A stretch of DNA of 64,000 nt from Candidatus Peregrinibacteria bacterium (GTDB lineage Bacteria; Patescibacteriota; Gracilibacteria; UBA1369). The stretch spans positions 8,050 to 72,049 of the forward strand of contig JAGQLQ010000013.1 in the NCBI GenBank assembly GCA_020429235.1, written 5' to 3'. The notes beneath the pieces were generated by a model that ran no database searches, was not told the origin of the DNA, and saw only the letters and a list, made by a program, of their open reading frames with translations. This document shows, in pieces, positions 7,604 through 54,084 of the stretch. The translations under genes were made by a program, and so were the position numbers. Numbering within the stretch: the first letter of the stretch is position 1; every line of letters starts with the position of its first letter.

Positions 7604-8602
7604 TCATAAAACTACTTCAACCTCCCTTTCGAGATTTACGTTGAACTTTTCAGCTACAGAGTTCCTGATTTCTTCTGAGAGGTTGAGTATGTCCATGCCC
7701 GATGCTTTACCAAAATTAACAAGAACCAACGGTTGTTTGTCGTGTACCCCCGCATCACCCACTCTTATTCCTTTCCACCCACACTGGTCGATCAACCAAG
7801 CTGCTGACAGTTTTTTGTTGTTATCCGACTCATAATAAACTGGCATCTTTGGATAAACCGATAAAAGAGTTGCCGCAATTTGGGAACTTACCACCGGGTT
7901 TTTGAAAAAGCTTCCGGCATTGCCCAAAATTTTGGGATCGGGTAGTTTTTTCCCTCTAATGTTGATAACAGCTTTTCGGATGTTTATGGGGTTTATTTCT
8001 CCGAATCTGGCTATTTCATCTTGTAACCTGTCGTATTTATTGTCAGTTTTAAAAGACCTTGACAGCAAAAAGAAAACTTTGGTAATCAGATATTTATTTT
8101 TGAGTTCTTTTTTAAAGACGCTATCGCGGTAACCGAAATGGCACTCTTCGTTGTTGAACTCCCTTGTTTCACCGTTAGCCAGGCAGATGGCCCTGACTTT
8201 ACAGATGCTGTCTTTTGCTTCCGCACCATATGCCCCGATGTTCTGTACCGGAGAGGCTCCTACATTTCCTGGTATATCAGAAAGAGATTCAAGTCCGTGA
8301 TACCCATTCTCAACGCACCATCTTACAAGATCGTCCCAAACGACACCAGCACCGGCAGCGACAATCACCTTGTCGGTTCCGGCCATATCAACTGAAATGC
8401 CGCCCATTGTTGGTTGAATTACAGTGCCCACAACGTCGGCACAAAAAAGAAAATTTGAACCTCCCCCCAATACAATTGTTTTATCGGTTACAGGCAAAAT
8501 GGATTTGAGTTCTTCCTCGCTGGAGCAGGAGATAAATGTTTTGGCCTTGTAGTCGAGGTTAAAGGTATTGAGACCGAGTAGCGGGAAATTATGCTGGATC
8601 AT
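7604..8602 (-). CDS. murB: UDP-N-acetylenolpyruvoylglucosamine reductase, long (type I, E. coli/Bacteroidota-like) form
   Basis: The 332 aa product has the FAD-binding N-terminal domain (LGGGSNFLF) and the MurB C-terminal domain (SAAWLIDQCGWKG). It lies in the AT-rich segment. Confidence 0.85.
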   Translation of the reverse strand: MIQHNFPLLGLNTFNLDYKAKTFISCSSEEELKSILPVTDKTIVLGGGSNFLFCADVVGTVIQPTMGGISVDMAGTDKVIVAAGAGVVWDDLVRWCVENGYHGLESLSDIPGNVGASPVQNIGAYGAEAKDSICKVRAICLANGETREFNNEECHFGYRDSVFKKELKNKYLITKVFFLLSRSFKTDNKYDRLQDEIARFGEINPINIRKAVINIRGKKLPDPKILGNAGSFFKNPVVSSQIAATLLSVYPKMPVYYESDNNKKLSAAWLIDQCGWKGIRVGDAGVHDKQPLVLVNFGKASGMDILNLSEEIRNSVAEKFNVNLEREVEVVL

Positions 8603-8909: not shown

Positions 8910-9518
8910 TTAAAAGGCAAAAAATAGCATCGCCGCGGCCATAACCACCATCGACAAATCTTCCACCAACGTCACATTTGAAAGTGGCAGTTTCAAAAAA
9001 GTACCCAGGCAGGCACACATAATTTTCTGCTTTTTCATCATACTTCGAATCACTCCCAGGCTGCTAAATAGCATCAGTACCAATGTCACCCAGTTCACAA
9101 TATCCAGCTGAAAACGGATCAGATAAGCCAGTCCAAGCCCCACTTCCATCATCGCATACACATAACCATAAGCCGGAATCTTCATCGCCAGAAGATCATA
9201 CGTTGAGTATCCCTCAACAAACCCTTTCAAATCCAACATCTTCACCCCTCCAAACACCAAAAAAGCACCGGCCATAAAATTCATCATCACCTCCTGCCAC
9301 GCAAAATTCCCAGCAACAAAATCCCGCAGACCCGTTGCCGCTGCCGCCAAAGCAATCATCCCAATCAATGTAAACAGTTTGCCATACTCCTTGTCGTCCC
9401 CCTCTTTCTTAAGCTCCAGTTCAGACTCCTTCACCAAAGCCATACCGCACTTCGGACACTTTCCCGGCCCATCCTGCCGGACCTCCGGATGCATTGGACA
9501 TGTATACATTTCGTTCAT
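8910..9518 (-). CDS. Heavy-metal-binding (CPxH...CPxCGM) domain fused to MauE/DoxX-like membrane domain
   Basis: N-terminal YTCPMHPEV...GKCPKCGMAL motif, as seen in CopA N-terminal metal-binding domains. Four predicted TM helices follow. Confidence 0.6.
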   Translation of the reverse strand: MNEMYTCPMHPEVRQDGPGKCPKCGMALVKESELELKKEGDDKEYGKLFTLIGMIALAAAATGLRDFVAGNFAWQEVMMNFMAGAFLVFGGVKMLDLKGFVEGYSTYDLLAMKIPAYGYVYAMMEVGLGLAYLIRFQLDIVNWVTLVLMLFSSLGVIRSMMKKQKIMCACLGTFLKLPLSNVTLVEDLSMVVMAAAMLFFAF

Positions 9519-19831: not shown

Positions 19832-20377
19832 ATGGCCAATAATCTATTAAACAAAGAGCAAAAGGAAAAAATAGGATCTACAGTAGATCAACTATTGCAT
19901 GAGTATACGACTGATTTTAATCAGTGGCAGGTGCTCAAGAGTATAGCTGATAAAAATGGTATAGAGTTGAAACAGGCACCTCTTCAGGATATCTCGGGCA
20001 TTCTCTATAAGGATCAAGACGAAAAATGGAAGATCATTGTTAACCAAGATGATTCAAATACGCGAAAGCTGTTTACCACTGCTCACGAACTAGGACATTT
20101 TTTTCTGCACAGAGATGAAAGTGAAAAATTCATCGATAGTGAACTAGTACAGGCATGCTTTGGAAGAACCGAGCTAACAAAGTTCCAAAAAAAAGAAATT
20201 GAAGCAAATGAGTTTGCGGGAGAGCTACTGATGCCTGAATCAATTATAAAGAGGGAACTCAAAGACAACAAAGATGGCAAGCCGAAAAGAGAGAAAGTTG
20301 AACAACTAGCTGCAAAGTTCAATGTTTCGACGCTTGCGATGATAACTCGATTAAGAAATCTAGGGTATGACGCCTGA
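19832..20377 (+). CDS. ImmA/IrrE-family metallopeptidase (DUF955)
   Basis: HELGHFFLH zinc motif followed by a downstream EANEFAGELLMP block. The gene is low in G+C. Confidence 0.75.
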   Translation: MANNLLNKEQKEKIGSTVDQLLHEYTTDFNQWQVLKSIADKNGIELKQAPLQDISGILYKDQDEKWKIIVNQDDSNTRKLFTTAHELGHFFLHRDESEKFIDSELVQACFGRTELTKFQKKEIEANEFAGELLMPESIIKRELKDNKDGKPKREKVEQLAAKFNVSTLAMITRLRNLGYDA

Positions 20378-20588
20378 TAACAATGATCTACAGACCTTTT
20401 TAAAGAATACGGGGACAACTCCACTGATAGTTGACCGATCTGAGGCAGAGAAGGAAGCCAATGCGGACTTAATGAAAGAAAAGCTGTCTCGAGTAAGATG
20501 GCGAAGGCGTGGAGAAGGAGCTCTTTTGCTACTTGCAGTAGAAGTATTTGTATTTTTAATAGGCATGGTTTTGTATTTATCAAGATGA
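20367..20588 (+). CDS. Small C-terminally membrane-anchored protein (73 aa), start overlaps ImmA stop
   Basis: The ATG overlaps the end of the ImmA gene. There is one C-terminal TM helix (ALLLLAVEVFVFLIGMVLYL). Confidence 0.35.
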   Translation: MTPDNNDLQTFLKNTGTTPLIVDRSEAEKEANADLMKEKLSRVRWRRRGEGALLLLAVEVFVFLIGMVLYLSR

Positions 20589-20635
20589 AGAGTTTTGAAG
20601 AACTGGAAAAGAGGATTGATTCATGAAAAACAGCT

Positions 20636-20710
20636 GTGTCATTTTTGAGTGATCATGCATCACGAAAAATAAGGTCGAGCGTACATGCTAGCGAGACCTT
20701 ACGATGACAC
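20636..20710. repeat. Structured element, copy 1 (outer 7-bp stem, two internal hairpins, invariant 18-nt loop)
   Basis: Outer stem GTGTCAT/ATGACAC. Hairpin 1 is GTGAT-CATGC-ATCAC. Hairpin 2 is AAGGTC-GAGCGTACATGCTAGCGA-GACCTT. The same architecture recurs at 47963..48056. Confidence 0.55.
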
Positions 20711-20724
20711 TTGTTTTGAATGGA

Positions 20725-21288
20725 TTATTCCTCTTTGCTACCGGTCTTCTGAAGAATTCCCCGCACAATATGCTTCCAATCATATGGAAAGCTGTACGTT
20801 TCATGTGCGCGAACAAGTGCGCGGAAAATTTCCCACGGCCCCATTTTCGCAAAAGTAAAAGCGTTTCCAGTCTCTTCACTGGCATTATAGTTCTCCAAAA
20901 GCGGTGATTTATCCAATCCAACCACCACCACACCATGAGCCAAAAGTCGTGCCACGTCGCCCATATGCTCTTCAAAAACAAGCGCCATATCGGCTGCCTC
21001 TAAATACTTTTCAAGAGCAGCATCGTTGCGGCCATCTTTCATATTCACCCATGTAATCTTCCCTTTAGTTGTATCCTCTCCACTGGCCGGCTCTTCATCA
21101 TCAACCACCACTATATTACTCGTCAAAATAAGCATCCCTTCCAAAAGCTGAAAGAACTCATCCTTTTTAAGTCCCTTATTGGGAGCAAAAACAACCAAAA
21201 GTGGATCTTTCACGCTGGTACCTTTCACCACCTCTTTTTTGGCCGATTTTTTCGACTCAACCAGCATTTGGTATTCACTTTTGGACAT
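20725..21288 (-). CDS. Stand-alone GT-B C-terminal-domain protein resembling the C-terminal half of glycogen/starch synthases
   Basis: ...GNAFTFAKMGPWEIFRALVRAHETYSFPYDWKHIV resembles the GlgA C-terminus, but there is no N-terminal Rossmann half. I placed the start at MSKSEY. Confidence 0.4.
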   Translation of the reverse strand: MSKSEYQMLVESKKSAKKEVVKGTSVKDPLLVVFAPNKGLKKDEFFQLLEGMLILTSNIVVVDDEEPASGEDTTKGKITWVNMKDGRNDAALEKYLEAADMALVFEEHMGDVARLLAHGVVVVGLDKSPLLENYNASEETGNAFTFAKMGPWEIFRALVRAHETYSFPYDWKHIVRGILQKTGSKEE

Positions 21289-21374
21289 GCGTGGGGTAGA
21301 AAGTAACAAGTAACAATCCAATAATTATAGCAGAAAAGAGGCCGGTTTTCCATCCTCATAAAGCCAAAAACTCC

Positions 21375-47799: not shown

Positions 47800-47877
47800 G
47801 CAACACGATCGAGGCGCGCCCGTACCAACGGGCCCCACCATCCACTAGGACAGTGCGGGCGCCCCTCGGTCAAACCT

Positions 47878-47916
47878 GAACCCCGCGTCGCCACAAGCCA
47901 CGCGGGGTTCTTTCTT
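47878..47916 (+). terminator. Strong rho-independent terminator closing the GC-rich island
   Basis: GAACCCCGCG - 13-nt loop - CGCGGGGTTC followed by TTTCTT. Confidence 0.75.
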
Positions 47917-47962
47917 AAATAAGCAAAAATATCTCCCTCCTATTTGAGCGAGATATTTCAGA

Positions 47963-48056
47963 GTGAATCAGTTGTGCAAATCTCAATGGATCATGATCCA
48001 TTGAAATAAAGGCGAGCGTACATGCTAGCGAGCCTTTACCTTTGCACTTGATTCAC
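47963..48056. repeat. Structured element, copy 2
   Basis: Outer stem GTGAATCA..GTGCAAA / TTTGCAC.TGATTCAC. Hairpin 1 is CAATGGATCATGATCCATTG. Hairpin 2 is AAAGGC-GAGCGTACATGCTAGCGA-GCCTTT. The 18-nt loop is identical to copy 1. Confidence 0.55.
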
Positions 48057-48076
48057 AATGAAATGTCGAGTGATCC

Positions 48077-48162
48077 TGGTGGGCAGGGAGGGATTCGAAC
48101 CCCCGAAGGCGTAAGCCATCAGATTTACAGTCTGACCTCGTTGACCGCTTGAGTACCTACCC
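48077..48162 (-). tRNA. tRNA-Tyr (GTA), long variable arm, CCA encoded
   Basis: Hand-folded: GGGTAGG acceptor stem, CTGTAAA anticodon loop, class II variable arm, GGTTCGAATCC T-arm. Confidence 0.9.
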
Positions 48163-48248: not shown

Positions 48249-48351
48249 TCATAGTGCGGCAAAATCAGCTTTTCAAGTCAATCAGAAACATGCTGACGCC
48301 ACAGCAAAAGGATGATATGGTATTAGCTCGAGAGTGTCAATAAAAGGATTA

Positions 48352-49293
48352 ATGACCGACAAAATAGCACAATTCATCCAAAAATTCCCAAACGTTGAAC
48401 AAAATAAACCTCTCGCTCCTTTCACTACACTTCAGGTTGGAGGTCCGGCAGACCTTTACTACGCCCTCACAGACATCAACGAAACAGAAGATCTCCTCAA
48501 TACCGCAAAAGAGCTCAAAATTCCCTATTTCATCCTTGGTGGCGGCTCCAACACTGTTTTTCATGAAAACGGCTTCCGTGGCCTCATTATTCACGTCAAA
48601 GCAAAAACAATCACCGTAGAGGAGGATCGAATCATCGCCGATGCAGGAGCACTCCTCTCTCTGGTCCTTCAAACCGCCAGAAAAAACGGCCTCATCGGCA
48701 TGGAAAAGTTTATGGGACTTCCGGGAACCGTTGGAGGAGCTGTCCGCGGCAACGCCGGAGCTTTCGGCATCGAAACCAAAGATGTCTTCGAAAAAGCCCT
48801 CATTTACAACGAAGAAAAAGGCATTCATGAAGAAACCGCCGAATATTTCAATTTCAAGTATCGATCATCCACTGTTAAAGCACGAAAAGGCCAGGACATT
48901 GTCCTTCAGGTCACCTACAAACTCCAAAAAGGCGATCCAGCGGCAGTTATGAAAGAGAACGCCACGGTCATCGCCAGCCGCCTCAAAAAACAGCCGGCAG
49001 GAAAAAACACCGGCTCATTCTTCAAAAATCCACGCCCCTTCGACTCAGCGGAAGGTCCGGCAATCCATGCTGGAAAACTCCTGGATGAAGCCGGATGTAA
49101 AGGCCTCAGCGTAGGTGAAATTCAGGTGTCAGACCAACACGCCAACTGGATAATGAACCAGGGCAACGCCACTCAAACTCAGGTCATCGAGCTTATGAAA
49201 GCCATGCAATCACGGGTAAAAGAGAAGTTCGGTATCGACCTTGAACCGGAAGTTCAGTTCGTCGGCGAAACCGGACCACTCACTTTCAACTAG
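48352..49293 (+). CDS. murB: UDP-N-acetylenolpyruvoylglucosamine reductase, short (type II, Gram-positive-like) form
   Basis: PLAPFTTLQVGGPADLY, ILGGGSNTVF and GSFFKNP motifs, with host-like codon usage. I placed the start at the ATG at 48352. Confidence 0.85.
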   Translation: MTDKIAQFIQKFPNVEQNKPLAPFTTLQVGGPADLYYALTDINETEDLLNTAKELKIPYFILGGGSNTVFHENGFRGLIIHVKAKTITVEEDRIIADAGALLSLVLQTARKNGLIGMEKFMGLPGTVGGAVRGNAGAFGIETKDVFEKALIYNEEKGIHEETAEYFNFKYRSSTVKARKGQDIVLQVTYKLQKGDPAAVMKENATVIASRLKKQPAGKNTGSFFKNPRPFDSAEGPAIHAGKLLDEAGCKGLSVGEIQVSDQHANWIMNQGNATQTQVIELMKAMQSRVKEKFGIDLEPEVQFVGETGPLTFN

Positions 49294-52491: not shown

Positions 52492-53247
52492 TTAAGCTCC
52501 GGGATTACGAATAGCAAATGCCTGACTCTGAAGCTGATCATCCATGCCCTTAGAAGCCATTTGAGCGTTTTGAATCATTTCGTTGAGTTCACCAACGGTA
52601 ATAATCTCATCAGGCCGGAAATAGTCAATTTCTGGGGTTATACCGTGTTCGAATGCAAAGTTCAGATAGCGGTTATACCACCAGTTCTCTTCATATGTGA
52701 GAGCTTCATCCAGATATGGGGTTGAATGAACGGTTTCCTCTTCAGAAACCTCAAAACGTTCCTCCCAATCCATGAGGTCAGAAGCGCCCAAAACAATCTT
52801 CAAAGCCTGAATACGTGACATCACAATTTCCGGACGAAAAGGAGTATCCTCCTCCTGCAAATAGCCATGTACCAGTCCAAGCATAGATGCCACATTAATA
52901 TCATGGTAAAAACGAGAATTTGGAGTTACATCCGGATAGAGGCTCAAGAAAGGCTCAAAAGCAATACCATCAAAGTCTGACATAGCCGAAAAAACAAAGA
53001 AACACTCATCCAGATGGTTTTGGCAGGATGTTAGGAAGGATGATTCCCGCTCTGCAAGCTGAAAAGAGGTAACAATAGTCGACACCACCTCTCCGCGAGT
53101 CAGTAAACGCGACTCATACTCATGGTCTGGATTTCGTATAGCAGCAAAAGCTCTTTGCTGAGAAAAAAGCAGCAGCACAAAGGCGGCAGCCAGGGAGAAC
53201 AACAGGTAACGATTCCCACCAATACGTCGATATATACTTCGATTCAA
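52492..53247 (-). CDS. Secreted hypothetical protein (251 aa), possibly with SLH-like segments
   Basis: Signal peptide (LLFSLAAAFVLLLFSQQRAFA). The LTRGEVVSTIV and MSRIQALKIVL segments resemble SLH repeats. Confidence 0.45.
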   Translation of the reverse strand: MNRSIYRRIGGNRYLLFSLAAAFVLLLFSQQRAFAAIRNPDHEYESRLLTRGEVVSTIVTSFQLAERESSFLTSCQNHLDECFFVFSAMSDFDGIAFEPFLSLYPDVTPNSRFYHDINVASMLGLVHGYLQEEDTPFRPEIVMSRIQALKIVLGASDLMDWEERFEVSEEETVHSTPYLDEALTYEENWWYNRYLNFAFEHGITPEIDYFRPDEIITVGELNEMIQNAQMASKGMDDQLQSQAFAIRNPGA

Positions 53248-53329: not shown

Positions 53330-53460
53330 TCAGTCTTGTCGACATCGAGTCGACAGTGGACAGAAGGAAGAGACTTGAAGCTAGACATTTGTCGACATGC
53401 TGTCTACAATGTCGATAAGTTTGTCGACTCGATGTCGACTTAATGTCAATAGACAAGGTA
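53330..53460. promoter_or_regulatory. Divergent intergenic region packed with TGTCGACA-type palindromes
   Basis: Five exact GTCGAC cores plus GTGGACA, TAGACA, GTCTACA, GTCGATA and GTCAATAGACA variants within about 130 nt. Confidence 0.55.
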
Positions 53461-54084
53461 TCAATGGCAGAAAATTTCCAAACAGACAGAAAAGCAGCTG
53501 CAAAACTGCTAAATGTGTCGGTCAGGACAGTAGACAGGTACATTGCTTCAAATAGATTGTCTATTCAACGTCGAGACAATAGAATTTGGCTTTCAAAAAA
53601 GGATATAGTTGAATTTAGAGATGGCCGACAAGTAGACACGTCTGATGTCGATATGTCTATAGACGTCGATAGCCAAAATAGTGTGGACAGGAGCACCGCG
53701 GGTGTCGACTCATTGTCGACACCCGCGGAAAAAATTTCCGCAAACAAAAAAGCACGTTCCGCATCCACCATTTATAAAAAGCTCTACGAACAAACCCACG
53801 AAGAACTTAAAAACGCACAAAAACGGCTGGAAGGTGCCAACTACCGAGTCGGACAACTGGAGTCACTGGTAAAAGAGAGCGTACCACTTCTGGACCATCA
53901 ACGCCTCCTTGGTGAGGAAAAGGCAGAAAGATTCCAATTGGAAGAAGAGGTGGAAACCCTCCGTGACAAAATCGAACGAATGAAAACAAAGATCAAAGAA
54001 GAGACCTTCAGTCGAAAAGCTTATTTGATAGCACTTTTCATCATCCTGCTCCTCCAGCCACTCTGGCTGCTCCTTCTCCGCTAA
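53443..54084 (+). CDS. Excisionase/MerR-type HTH protein with coiled coil and C-terminal membrane anchor
   Basis: AAKLLNVSVRTVDRYIASNRLSIQRRDNRIWLSKKDIVEF (HTH_17-like), a coiled coil, and the tail anchor AYLIALFIILLLQPLWLLLL. An alternative start lies at 53464. Confidence 0.65.
   Translation: MSIDKVSMAENFQTDRKAAAKLLNVSVRTVDRYIASNRLSIQRRDNRIWLSKKDIVEFRDGRQVDTSDVDMSIDVDSQNSVDRSTAGVDSLSTPAEKISANKKARSASTIYKKLYEQTHEELKNAQKRLEGANYRVGQLESLVKESVPLLDHQRLLGEEKAERFQLEEEVETLRDKIERMKTKIKEETFSRKAYLIALFIILLLQPLWLLLLR
53696..53728. repeat. Perfect 14-bp inverted repeat inside the HTH gene
   Basis: CCGCGGGTGTCGAC - TCATT - GTCGACACCCGCGG, followed by AAAAAATTT. Confidence 0.8.

Follow-up and report, generated by a model that had tools for sequence, protein, structure and literature searches.

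A strand-specific structured element with invariant loops and variable stems in a few Peregrinibacteria

Background

Almost nothing is known about the non-coding elements of Candidate Phyla Radiation (CPR) bacteria. In a stretch of 64,000 nucleotides (nt) from a Candidatus Peregrinibacteria bacterium (GenBank assembly GCA_020429235.1, contig JAGQLQ010000013.1, forward-strand positions 8,050 to 72,049; called the window below and numbered from its first letter), an earlier note, made from the letters alone, had singled out two intergenic segments as possible copies of one folded element. The locus raises the question whether the two segments share a fold that is under selection and, if so, on which strand and as which kind of molecule this fold might act. 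They belong to a real, selected and strand-specific family of structured elements, which is found in a few Peregrinibacteria and is absent from Rfam and from the literature searched. The case is unusually clean, as compensated changes, a strand call and invariant loops come together with filled, empty and half-deleted alleles in near-identical strains.

Two copies of one fold in the window

The 18-mer GAGCGTACATGCTAGCGA, described in the earlier note as an identical loop of both segments, is found in the window exactly twice, each time on the + strand (20677-20694 and 48014-48031). No further window site was found when up to three mismatches were allowed (chance expectation ~0.02). Folding of both segments reproduced the proposed arrangement of an outer helix (P1) and two hairpins (P2 and P3), with z-scores of -3.2 and -6.4 on the + strand.

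The first copy (of subtype A, see below) extends over 20608-20736 of the + strand (~129 nt) and consists of a long imperfect closing helix and a head built on a three-way junction. Its ends form the inverted repeat I1 (30-nt arms, 77% complementary, 20608-20637 and 20707-20736), and the fold of the 129-nt + strand has 48 pairs and an energy of -49.0 kcal/mol. The core, which comprises the inner 7 base pairs (bp) of P1 together with P2 and P3, has the bounds given in the earlier note, 20636-20710 (+), and scores 100.9 bits with covariance model R1. Its P2 arm (20643-20669, +) reads UUUU, tandem GA, GUGAU, loop CAUGC, AUCAC, tandem GA and AAAA, and has 11 stacked pairs, the G·A pairs included. 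In the P3 arm (20670-20701, +), a 7-bp stem closes the invariant 18-mer, inside which a tandem G·A is followed by GC/GC and then by the 10-nt loop GUACAUGCUA; the motifs TAGCGA and GAGCGT are both present there. The outer arm of this copy overlaps the stop codon of the 20725 gene.

The second copy (subtype B) extends over 47952-48067 of the + strand (~116 nt). Its ends form the inverted repeat I4 (19-nt arms, 84% complementary, 47952-47970 and 48049-48067), its fold energy is -49.7 kcal/mol, and its core, 47974-48047, scores 66.8 bits with R1. The P2 arm (47981-48006, +) is entirely Watson-Crick paired, has the loop CAUG and lies within the palindrome GGATCATGATCC (inverted repeat I13), while the P3 arm (48007-48038, +) carries the 18-mer.

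The stems had been read correctly in the earlier note, both for the outer helix (GTGTCAT/ATGACAC versus GTGAATCA..GTGCAAA/TTTGCAC.TGATTCAC) and for the second hairpin (AAGGTC/GACCTT versus AAAGGC/GCCTTT), and so had the distances from the segments as first drawn, 14 nt to the stop of the 20725 gene and 20 nt to the tRNA-Tyr gene (48077). Three features had to be redrawn. The outer stem is real, but its boundaries had been set too narrowly, as the helix extends outwards as an imperfect inverted repeat. The second hairpin does present an invariant 18-mer; however, its stem has 7 bp instead of 6, and the supposed 18-nt loop is itself structured, with a C-G pair, tandem G·A/A·G, a G-C and a C-G pair before the 10-nt loop. 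Finally, the first hairpin is built on GATCATG in both window copies, but this sequence is replaced by GCATCATGC and GGAACATGTTCC in the two further copies described below, and only the loop CAUG(C) is conserved.

Further copies and common architecture

An exact scan for the 18-mer in the genomes of 185,579 species, one genome per species, yielded two real copies, L001 in a metagenome-assembled genome (MAG) of the Peregrinibacteria and L002 in a MAG of the Peribacteria. Both have the architecture of the window copies with different stem sequences, and the exact 18-mer is present once in each of the two genomes and twice in the window. With a covariance model trained on two copies, all four were recovered at 60-101 bits, and the window gave no other match; when ~300 kb from relatives were scanned with such a model, no diverged copies beyond those reported here were found. 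The only metagenome match to the 18-mer (L003) is due to chance, being the ribosome-binding site and ATG of an antitoxin-like gene, with no stems. The earlier note had made its proposal depend on further homologues, and these exist, though they are few: the family comprises four independent full copies, one orthologous copy (L014) and two truncated remnants (L004 and L024), and as known is confined to three species-level lineages.

Across the family, the element is about 115-140 nt long. The closing helix P1 has ~30-37 pairs, is imperfect and extends outwards, with 31 perfect pairs in L002, and the three-way junction has nearly zero unpaired bases. P2 has 11 stacked pairs and the loop CAUG or CAUGC. 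P3 has 7 pairs, followed in all copies by the C-G, tandem G·A/A·G, G-C and C-G pairs and the 10-nt loop, and the two arms are of equal length in every copy, with ~11 stacked pairs each, which sets the two invariant loops next to each other. Subtype A (the first window copy and L001) has the loop CAUGC and tandem G·A in P2, whereas subtype B (the second window copy and L002) has the loop CAUG and Watson-Crick pairs in place of the tandem G·A, its P2 forming a perfect palindrome around a central CATG. Neither the 20-mer CGAGCG...GCGAG nor the CAUG loop varies, against differences at ~40% of the stem positions. Copies from one species diverge throughout their stems and are therefore not recent transposition products of one another.

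The outer arms are unrelated between copies (shuffle not significant), and no target duplications were seen flanking the element. Two candidate relationships of the arms, namely homology between those of the first window copy and L001 and a derivation of the L001 outer arm from the sufD start, failed shuffle tests (p=0.05-0.46 for both arm tests), and inverted duplication of host flanking sequence was therefore dropped as an origin of the element.

Covariation

In the alignment of the four copies, 97% of the pair cells hold standard pairs, against 30-39% in slid controls in which the 3' partners were shifted by 1-3 columns. Changes on both sides were found in 18 of the 25 pairs, and none of 500 shuffles matched any of the observed covariation measures. 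Pairing has been maintained while the 20-mer and the CAUG loop never change, and the slid controls leave little doubt of it. The earlier note had taken the changed but still paired stems as the mark of a selected single-strand fold, of RNA or single-stranded DNA (ssDNA), and not of a simple duplication, a view that the two additional copies and their compensated changes bear out.

Folding strand and replication orientation

In the + orientation, the minimum-energy folds of the full elements contain 9 G·U pairs and no A·C mismatch (binomial p=0.004); an A·C mismatch on one strand is a G·U pair on the opposite strand. The same folds have 21 G·A/A·G cells; these form about ten tandem G·A motifs, each flanked as Y-GA-R. 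The + orientation is the more stable one in all four copies, by 3.0, 1.1, 10.3 and 6.8 kcal/mol. As DNA energy parameters give the same ranking, the strand is identified, while RNA and DNA are not distinguished. The folding strand is rich in C and A, a composition whose mutation bias would favour the opposite pattern, and the strand asymmetry looks selected for this reason. The fold is strand-specific and favours the + strand of the window; the emphasis of the earlier note on a position 3' of minus-strand transcription units does not identify the functional strand.

These observations also bear on a duplex DNA role, in which the palindromes (e.g. GGAnCATGnTCC) would be operators of a dimeric DNA-binding protein, and on a functionless palindrome with arms kept complementary by template switching at quasi-palindromes. 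The perfect palindrome on CATG in P2 of subtype B and the occurrence of other nested hairpins at the same sites in these genomes would fit one or the other, and the 31 perfect pairs of L002 suggest templated copying. However, the asymmetry of 9 G·U pairs to no A·C mismatch, with tandem G·A always on one strand, is unexpected for a duplex site or a neutral palindrome and contrary to the composition bias. Half-sites vary from copy to copy, the 18-mer lacks palindromic symmetry, and a neutral palindrome would not keep 22 loop bases invariant, which makes a duplex role or a functionless palindrome very unlikely. Avoidance of restriction sites was considered as well and rejected, since CATG and GTAC are not avoided, only CTAG.

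GC skew over the window (1-64000) is -0.16, strong and uniform, with A>T, and the minus strand holds all four tRNAs and most long open reading frames (ORFs). This places the whole window in a single replichore, the + strand being the lagging one. In L001 and L002 the skew is +0.19 and +0.18, respectively, and the element is on the minus strand of the locus in both, the folding strand being the C-rich strand in all four independent copies. By the usual reading of skew, this suggests that the folding strand is the lagging-strand sequence, i.e. the leading-strand template. Four copies would agree in orientation by chance in 1 of 8 cases, and the agreement is suggestive only.

Presence, absence and truncation among relatives

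At the site of the first window copy, two relatives (L007 and L008, with neighbouring genes ~77-80% identical) have neither an island nor the element, and the pilin gene and the downstream gene overlap. A closer relative (L004, 94%) has a different island and, of the element, no more than the 5' arm and half of P2, together with the left flank; this remnant is 85% identical over 69 nt and is followed by unrelated sequence. At the site of the second copy, two relatives have only 24 nt between a plain terminator and tRNA-Tyr, and a closer one (L009), with flanks 96-100% identical, has an unrelated, hairpin-rich filler of 190 nt. In L024 (GCA_041389165.1), which is 99.86% identical downstream, only P3 and the 3' arm are retained. 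The 90-nt stretch of the window that has no counterpart there, 47916-48005, takes in P2 and the 5' arm of P1 as well as a hairpin at 47922-47960.

The third site is the spacer between sufB and sufD, which is 11 nt long in three relatives (SufB 92-93% identical) and 163-165 nt long, element included, in L001 and L014. L014 and L024 are from one assembly (GCA_041389165.1), of the same species as the window, and that organism therefore has the suf copy together with a truncated second copy. L001 and L014 are 90.5% identical overall and 98-99% identical over ~300 nt centred on the element, which suggests either a recent recombination tract or strong constraint. The element is an accessory cassette and not a housekeeping gene, and its natural presence/absence alleles are ready controls for metatranscriptomic and biochemical tests.

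Other features were noticed at these sites. In L004, nested hairpins are present at the site of the first copy (9262-9375); their outer arm (GTCCTTTCAATAT) spans the last codons of the downstream gene and has as its partner an inverted copy 100 nt away, so hairpins at this site can incorporate coding ends. The filler of L009 (9535-9725) contains AAAAGTGTTCACGTGAACACTTTT, a perfect palindrome similar to a parS site that lacks two bases, and a long hairpin with AGCGTAC and GAGCGAG, echoes of the loop of the element. In L014 (11583-14068, GCA_041389165.1), the range called as sufD translates with an extra stop, and ~1.7 kb are without a gene call where relatives have a cysteine desulfurase gene; the suf operon may be decaying downstream of the inserted element.

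A candidate small RNA

With Rfam 15, only the 4 tRNAs were found in the whole window at the gathering threshold, and at E<=10 the two copies gave scattered matches of 12-19 bits, far below threshold, in agreement with the earlier note, which could assign the element to no known RNA family. A full-text literature search for the loop sequence returned no paper, and nothing relevant was found in the literature on Peregrinibacteria RNA motifs.

The best reading of the element, to which we assign a probability of roughly 0.4, is that of a small structured non-coding RNA that is read through its loops. The cassette-like sequence of ~115-140 nt would act as a folded single strand, the one with GAGCGTACATGCTAGCGA, and transcription of the small RNA from the C-rich strand would start at a weak promoter of its own or come about by read-through. 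The loops might kiss (CAUG with CAUG), or each might offer CAUGC to a dimeric partner, and we infer that a conserved trans factor would recognise the fixed loop surface. The helices would need only to stay paired and could drift by compensated changes. Tied to no neighbouring gene, the element would be gained, lost and truncated partly via homologous recombination of its flanks. This reading is supported by the exchange of the P2 tandem G·A of subtype A for Watson-Crick pairs in subtype B, which is usual behaviour of RNA helices, and by the matched arms with kissable loops, the promoter-like site of L001 and the two co-directional upstream genes (see below). It also draws on the shared architecture, the covariation, the strand asymmetry, the invariant loops and the suf copy, which is 99% identical in lineages with 90.5% identity otherwise. 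If correct, it would define a new class of structured RNA, with an unusual minimal junction and twin arms presenting CAUGC.

Several observations weigh against an RNA. Closing helices as long as these (30-37 pairs, in one case with 31 perfect pairs) are uncommon among bacterial small RNAs. Scans for promoters and terminators in the copies showed no shared pattern, and the L001/L014 copy lies inside the suf operon with its folding strand antisense to the sufB-sufD transcript. As the folding strand is the C-rich one in all copies, transcription of an RNA gene would in every case run head-on against replication. The lack of shared transcription signals, the operon-antisense copy and the fixed orientation keep a DNA-level role nearly as likely. 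The covariation comes from 4 independent sequences in an alignment fitted to the structure model, and, as the CAUG and 18-mer loops are invariant across all copies, it says nothing on a loop-loop contact. The element is also dispensable, being missing from empty sites in relatives, half-deleted in a 99.9%-identical strain and decayed in L004.

Like the purine riboswitch aptamer and stems I/II of the hammerhead ribozyme, the element has a closing helix and two arms of matched length, with loops that could pair and helices that covary. Unlike them, it has a nearly fully paired junction, which leaves no ligand pocket, a far longer closing helix, loops that never vary and no Rfam match, and it does not lie in a 5' leader; a riboswitch was ruled out by position. 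The pRNA of phi29-type phages is alike in its long helix formed by the ends, its central three-way junction, its two loops able to make 4-bp kissing contacts and its poorly conserved sequence with a kept structure. The loops of pRNA covary between phages, and pRNA lies in the phage genome beside the packaging genes, whereas the loops of the element are invariant and its surroundings are not those of a phage. A conserved small ORF starting at the ATG of the loop was rejected, since the frames of 8-80 codons share only the invariant bases.

The junction also brings to mind a special form of the RNA reading, a self-cleaving or self-assembling RNA, in which docked loops would make the junction a catalytic core or the palindromic loop sequences (CAUG, GUAC, GCUAGC), which can be read directly, would drive homo-oligomers. 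Bacterial hammerhead and twister ribozymes have a sporadic intergenic distribution independent of their neighbours, as the element does, and a ribozyme would also be in line with the tandem G·A pairs, the possible contact between the loops and the three-way junction. On the other hand, no ribozyme family matched at E<=10, the hammerhead core CUGAUGA...GAAA is not in the sequence, no cleavage site is marked, and the invariant bases lie in the terminal loops and not at the junction. We regard a ribozyme or self-assembling RNA as highly improbable.

Resemblance to single-strand origins

Besides a small RNA, the invariant 18-mer calls to mind the single-strand origins (sso) of rolling-circle plasmids. 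In these, the CS-6 consensus, TAGCGA/T, lies in the loop of the sso hairpin and ends the RNA-polymerase primer, and the origins are folded single strands of ~160 nt that work in one orientation only, with little conserved besides the RSB block and CS-6. TAGCGA is found within the 18-mer, in the P3 loop region, in all copies, and a second near-copy, GAGCGT, is found in the same invariant loop. The chance of such a 6-mer match in an 18-nt loop is ~0.6%, for a likeness that was noticed after the sequence had been seen.

The comparison was made with a pT181-type sequence and six further plasmid sso regions. With DNA parameters, the sso of pT181, pLNU4 and pCJFA-182_2 fold into a long imperfect stem with a two-hairpin head, one strand being more stable, and the four copies of the element, folded likewise, have the same long-hairpin, branched-head shape with a more stable + strand. 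The RSB block TTTATGCCGAGAAAA, common to six plasmid sso sequences, does not characterise the element family. L001 matches it at 11 of 15 positions and the other copies at ~8 of 14. The plasmid block is also placed differently, outside the stem, the stretch of L001 that resembles it being inside P2. The pair CATGCAT and GCCGAG was discarded as an RSB match, as CATGCAT is not conserved among sso sequences.

The element thus shares with ssoA (pT181 palA, pMV158 ssoA) a length within 115-180 nt, strand specificity, an imperfect long hairpin with a branched two-hairpin head, short motifs conserved while stems vary, CS-6 in the head and a cassette-like behaviour. It differs in having no conserved RSB, in its invariant block of 20 nt plus the CAUG loop, and in being chromosomal and intergenic, in a CPR lineage, without a plasmid sequence match. 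The likeness is one of possible mode of action, not of membership.

No rolling-circle replicon context was recognised around the copies, as judged from Rep genes, double-strand origins and plasmid or phage matches; their neighbours are sufB/sufD, tRNA-Tyr/MurB, a pilin gene and a gene of unassigned function, and TspO/DUF1761. Among the 27 window proteins scanned, there was no transposase, integrase, Rep, relaxase or reverse transcriptase, and at the suf locus no Rep, relaxase, transposase or integrase. Searches with blastn against plasmids (72,556) and phages gave nothing. The 18-mer is absent from the viral contigs searched, and its 14-mer core has 72 matches there, none with the architecture and none above 21.5 bits with the covariance model.

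The resemblance leads to the main rival of the small RNA, a folded ssDNA signal. The C-rich strand would fold when single and a protein would read the hairpin loops, either as an sso-like priming signal at which an RNA polymerase primer stops at CS-6, or as the substrate of a hairpin-recognising recombinase or transposase; the fixed orientation would come from the working mode or from insertion at the replication fork. Taken together, these versions are tentative but only slightly less probable than the small RNA. They could account for CS-6 and its near-copy in the invariant loop, for the alike folds of real ssoA sequences, better on one strand, for the single orientation of four independent copies with respect to GC skew, and for the copy that is antisense within an operon. 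The behaviour of inserted DNA, with empty sufB-sufD spacers of 11 nt, filled ones of 163-165 nt and truncated derivatives, fits as well, and stems of such length, perfect in part, are appropriate for a DNA hairpin signal. DNA, too, can accommodate G·T pairs and tandem G·A in Y-GA-R context stably. Set against this are the missing RSB block, the lack of Rep, relaxase, transposase and integrase among the scanned window proteins and at the suf locus, the lack of plasmid, phage or viral-contig matches, and the chance level and post hoc nature of the 6-mer match. Moreover, the folding strand is the leading-strand template and not the lagging-strand template, which is the one usually exposed, and the within-species copies, which differ throughout their stems, speak against recent transposition. 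If a DNA hairpin signal were the answer, sso-like or hairpin-site biology would be extended to the chromosomes of a lineage without a described system.

A more specific form of this idea, which we consider improbable, is a chromosomal, replication-oriented ssDNA cassette of CPR bacteria. Its CS-6-bearing loops would recruit RNA polymerase or primase, making it a counterpart of an sso on the leading-strand template, and it would spread by recombination of incoming single strands.

Comparison with mobile DNA

Several kinds of mobile sequence were also considered. The two window copies are not attL and attR of an island, because the intervening DNA (exonuclease, FtsA, FtsZ) is syntenic housekeeping sequence in relatives. 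REP and MITE repeats are, like the element, short palindromic insertions in intergenic regions at gene ends, polymorphic between relatives. Such a family was nevertheless rejected: these repeats have many near-identical copies with conserved arms, whereas here only the loops are conserved in 1-3 copies per genome (2 in the window, 1 in each matched genome), the arms are unrelated and flanking duplications are missing.

Integron attC sites are likewise strand-specific folded sites of 60-140 nt at gene 3' ends, with variable sequence and conserved structure, and the folding strand of attC in chromosomal integrons is the leading-strand template, as read here for the element. Nevertheless, the element conserves its loops and not its stem base, none of the four copies has the R''/R' core sites (RYYYAAC / GTTRRRY) in its arms, and neither an array nor a nearby integrase is present; attC was rejected. 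As for ends of the IS200/IS605 type, the window proteins scanned included no Y1 transposase, and no common flank motif was seen by eye.

Neighbouring genes and transcription signals

The first window copy has an ImmA/IrrE-like gene and a 73-amino-acid (aa) ORF on one side and the gene of unassigned function on the other; the second has a proline-rich protein gene on one side and tRNA-Tyr on the other; L001 lies between sufB and sufD, and L002 between TspO and DUF1761. No neighbouring gene is common to the four copies. The folding strand is co-directional with the upstream gene in the first window copy and in L002, beginning 20 nt and 127 nt after its stop, respectively. L001 has a promoter-like site on the folding strand (TGGACA, 18 nt, GAAAAT) that ends 4 nt before the closing helix.

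Three of the four copies lie between convergent genes, 10-69 nt past the end of a gene or tRNA, which would also be a suitable position for a two-way terminator or insulator. In this case, the closing helix with its A-rich and T-rich flanks would stop or pause transcription, and the head would be a passenger or stabiliser. An A-run before and a T-rich run after inner P1 are present in three of the four copies (AAAACA...TGTTTT, AAAAAA...TTTTTT), and the first window copy is the sole hairpin in its gap. Nevertheless, none of the copies was called by the terminator scan, the second window copy adjoins two ordinary terminator hairpins, relatives have one plain hairpin at its site, and the suf copy is inside an operon, where termination would be harmful. 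As 22 invariant loop bases and the strand bias would also be left unexplained, a terminator is an improbable role.

The outer arm of the element takes in the stop and the last 3 codons of the gene beside the first copy (20725-21321, minus strand, 198 aa as listed), whose product has a C-terminal tail unlike that of all relatives. On the other side of this copy is a variable island (19832-20588) with an ImmA/IrrE-type metallopeptidase gene (Peptidase_M78) and the overlapping 73-aa ORF, which has a hydrophobic tail. The island is missing in L007 and L008, in which the flanking genes overlap, and L004 has an unrelated 138-aa gene instead.

Beside the second copy, relatives diverge from the window right after the 3' end of tRNA-Tyr (48077-48162, minus strand). 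The hairpin at 47922-47960 (minus strand), outside the element but within the 90-nt indel, is followed by a T-run and is a possible terminator of the tRNA-Thr/tRNA-Tyr unit; it is the terminator-like part of a weak PyrR alignment and was not called by a simple terminator scan. A GC-rich hairpin at 47807-47873, just past the stop of a 304-aa gene, is also kept by three relatives. Both partners have changed in 3 of its pairs, its apical part varies, and Rfam offers no match; it is possibly a structure of the 3' untranslated region or a small RNA.

Elsewhere in the window, an intergenic element at 53338-53439 has 18-nt perfect inverted repeats (GTCGACATCGAGTCGACA), inner repeats containing GTCGAC and a z-score of about -4.9. 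This element immediately precedes a gene for a helix-turn-helix protein (HTH_17, 53443-54084), is divergent from the gene 52492-53247 and is probably the operator region of this HTH_17 regulator. Finally, two MurB-type genes (FAD_binding_4 and MurB_C), at 7604-8602 and 48334-49293, are found 40 kb apart in this small CPR genome.

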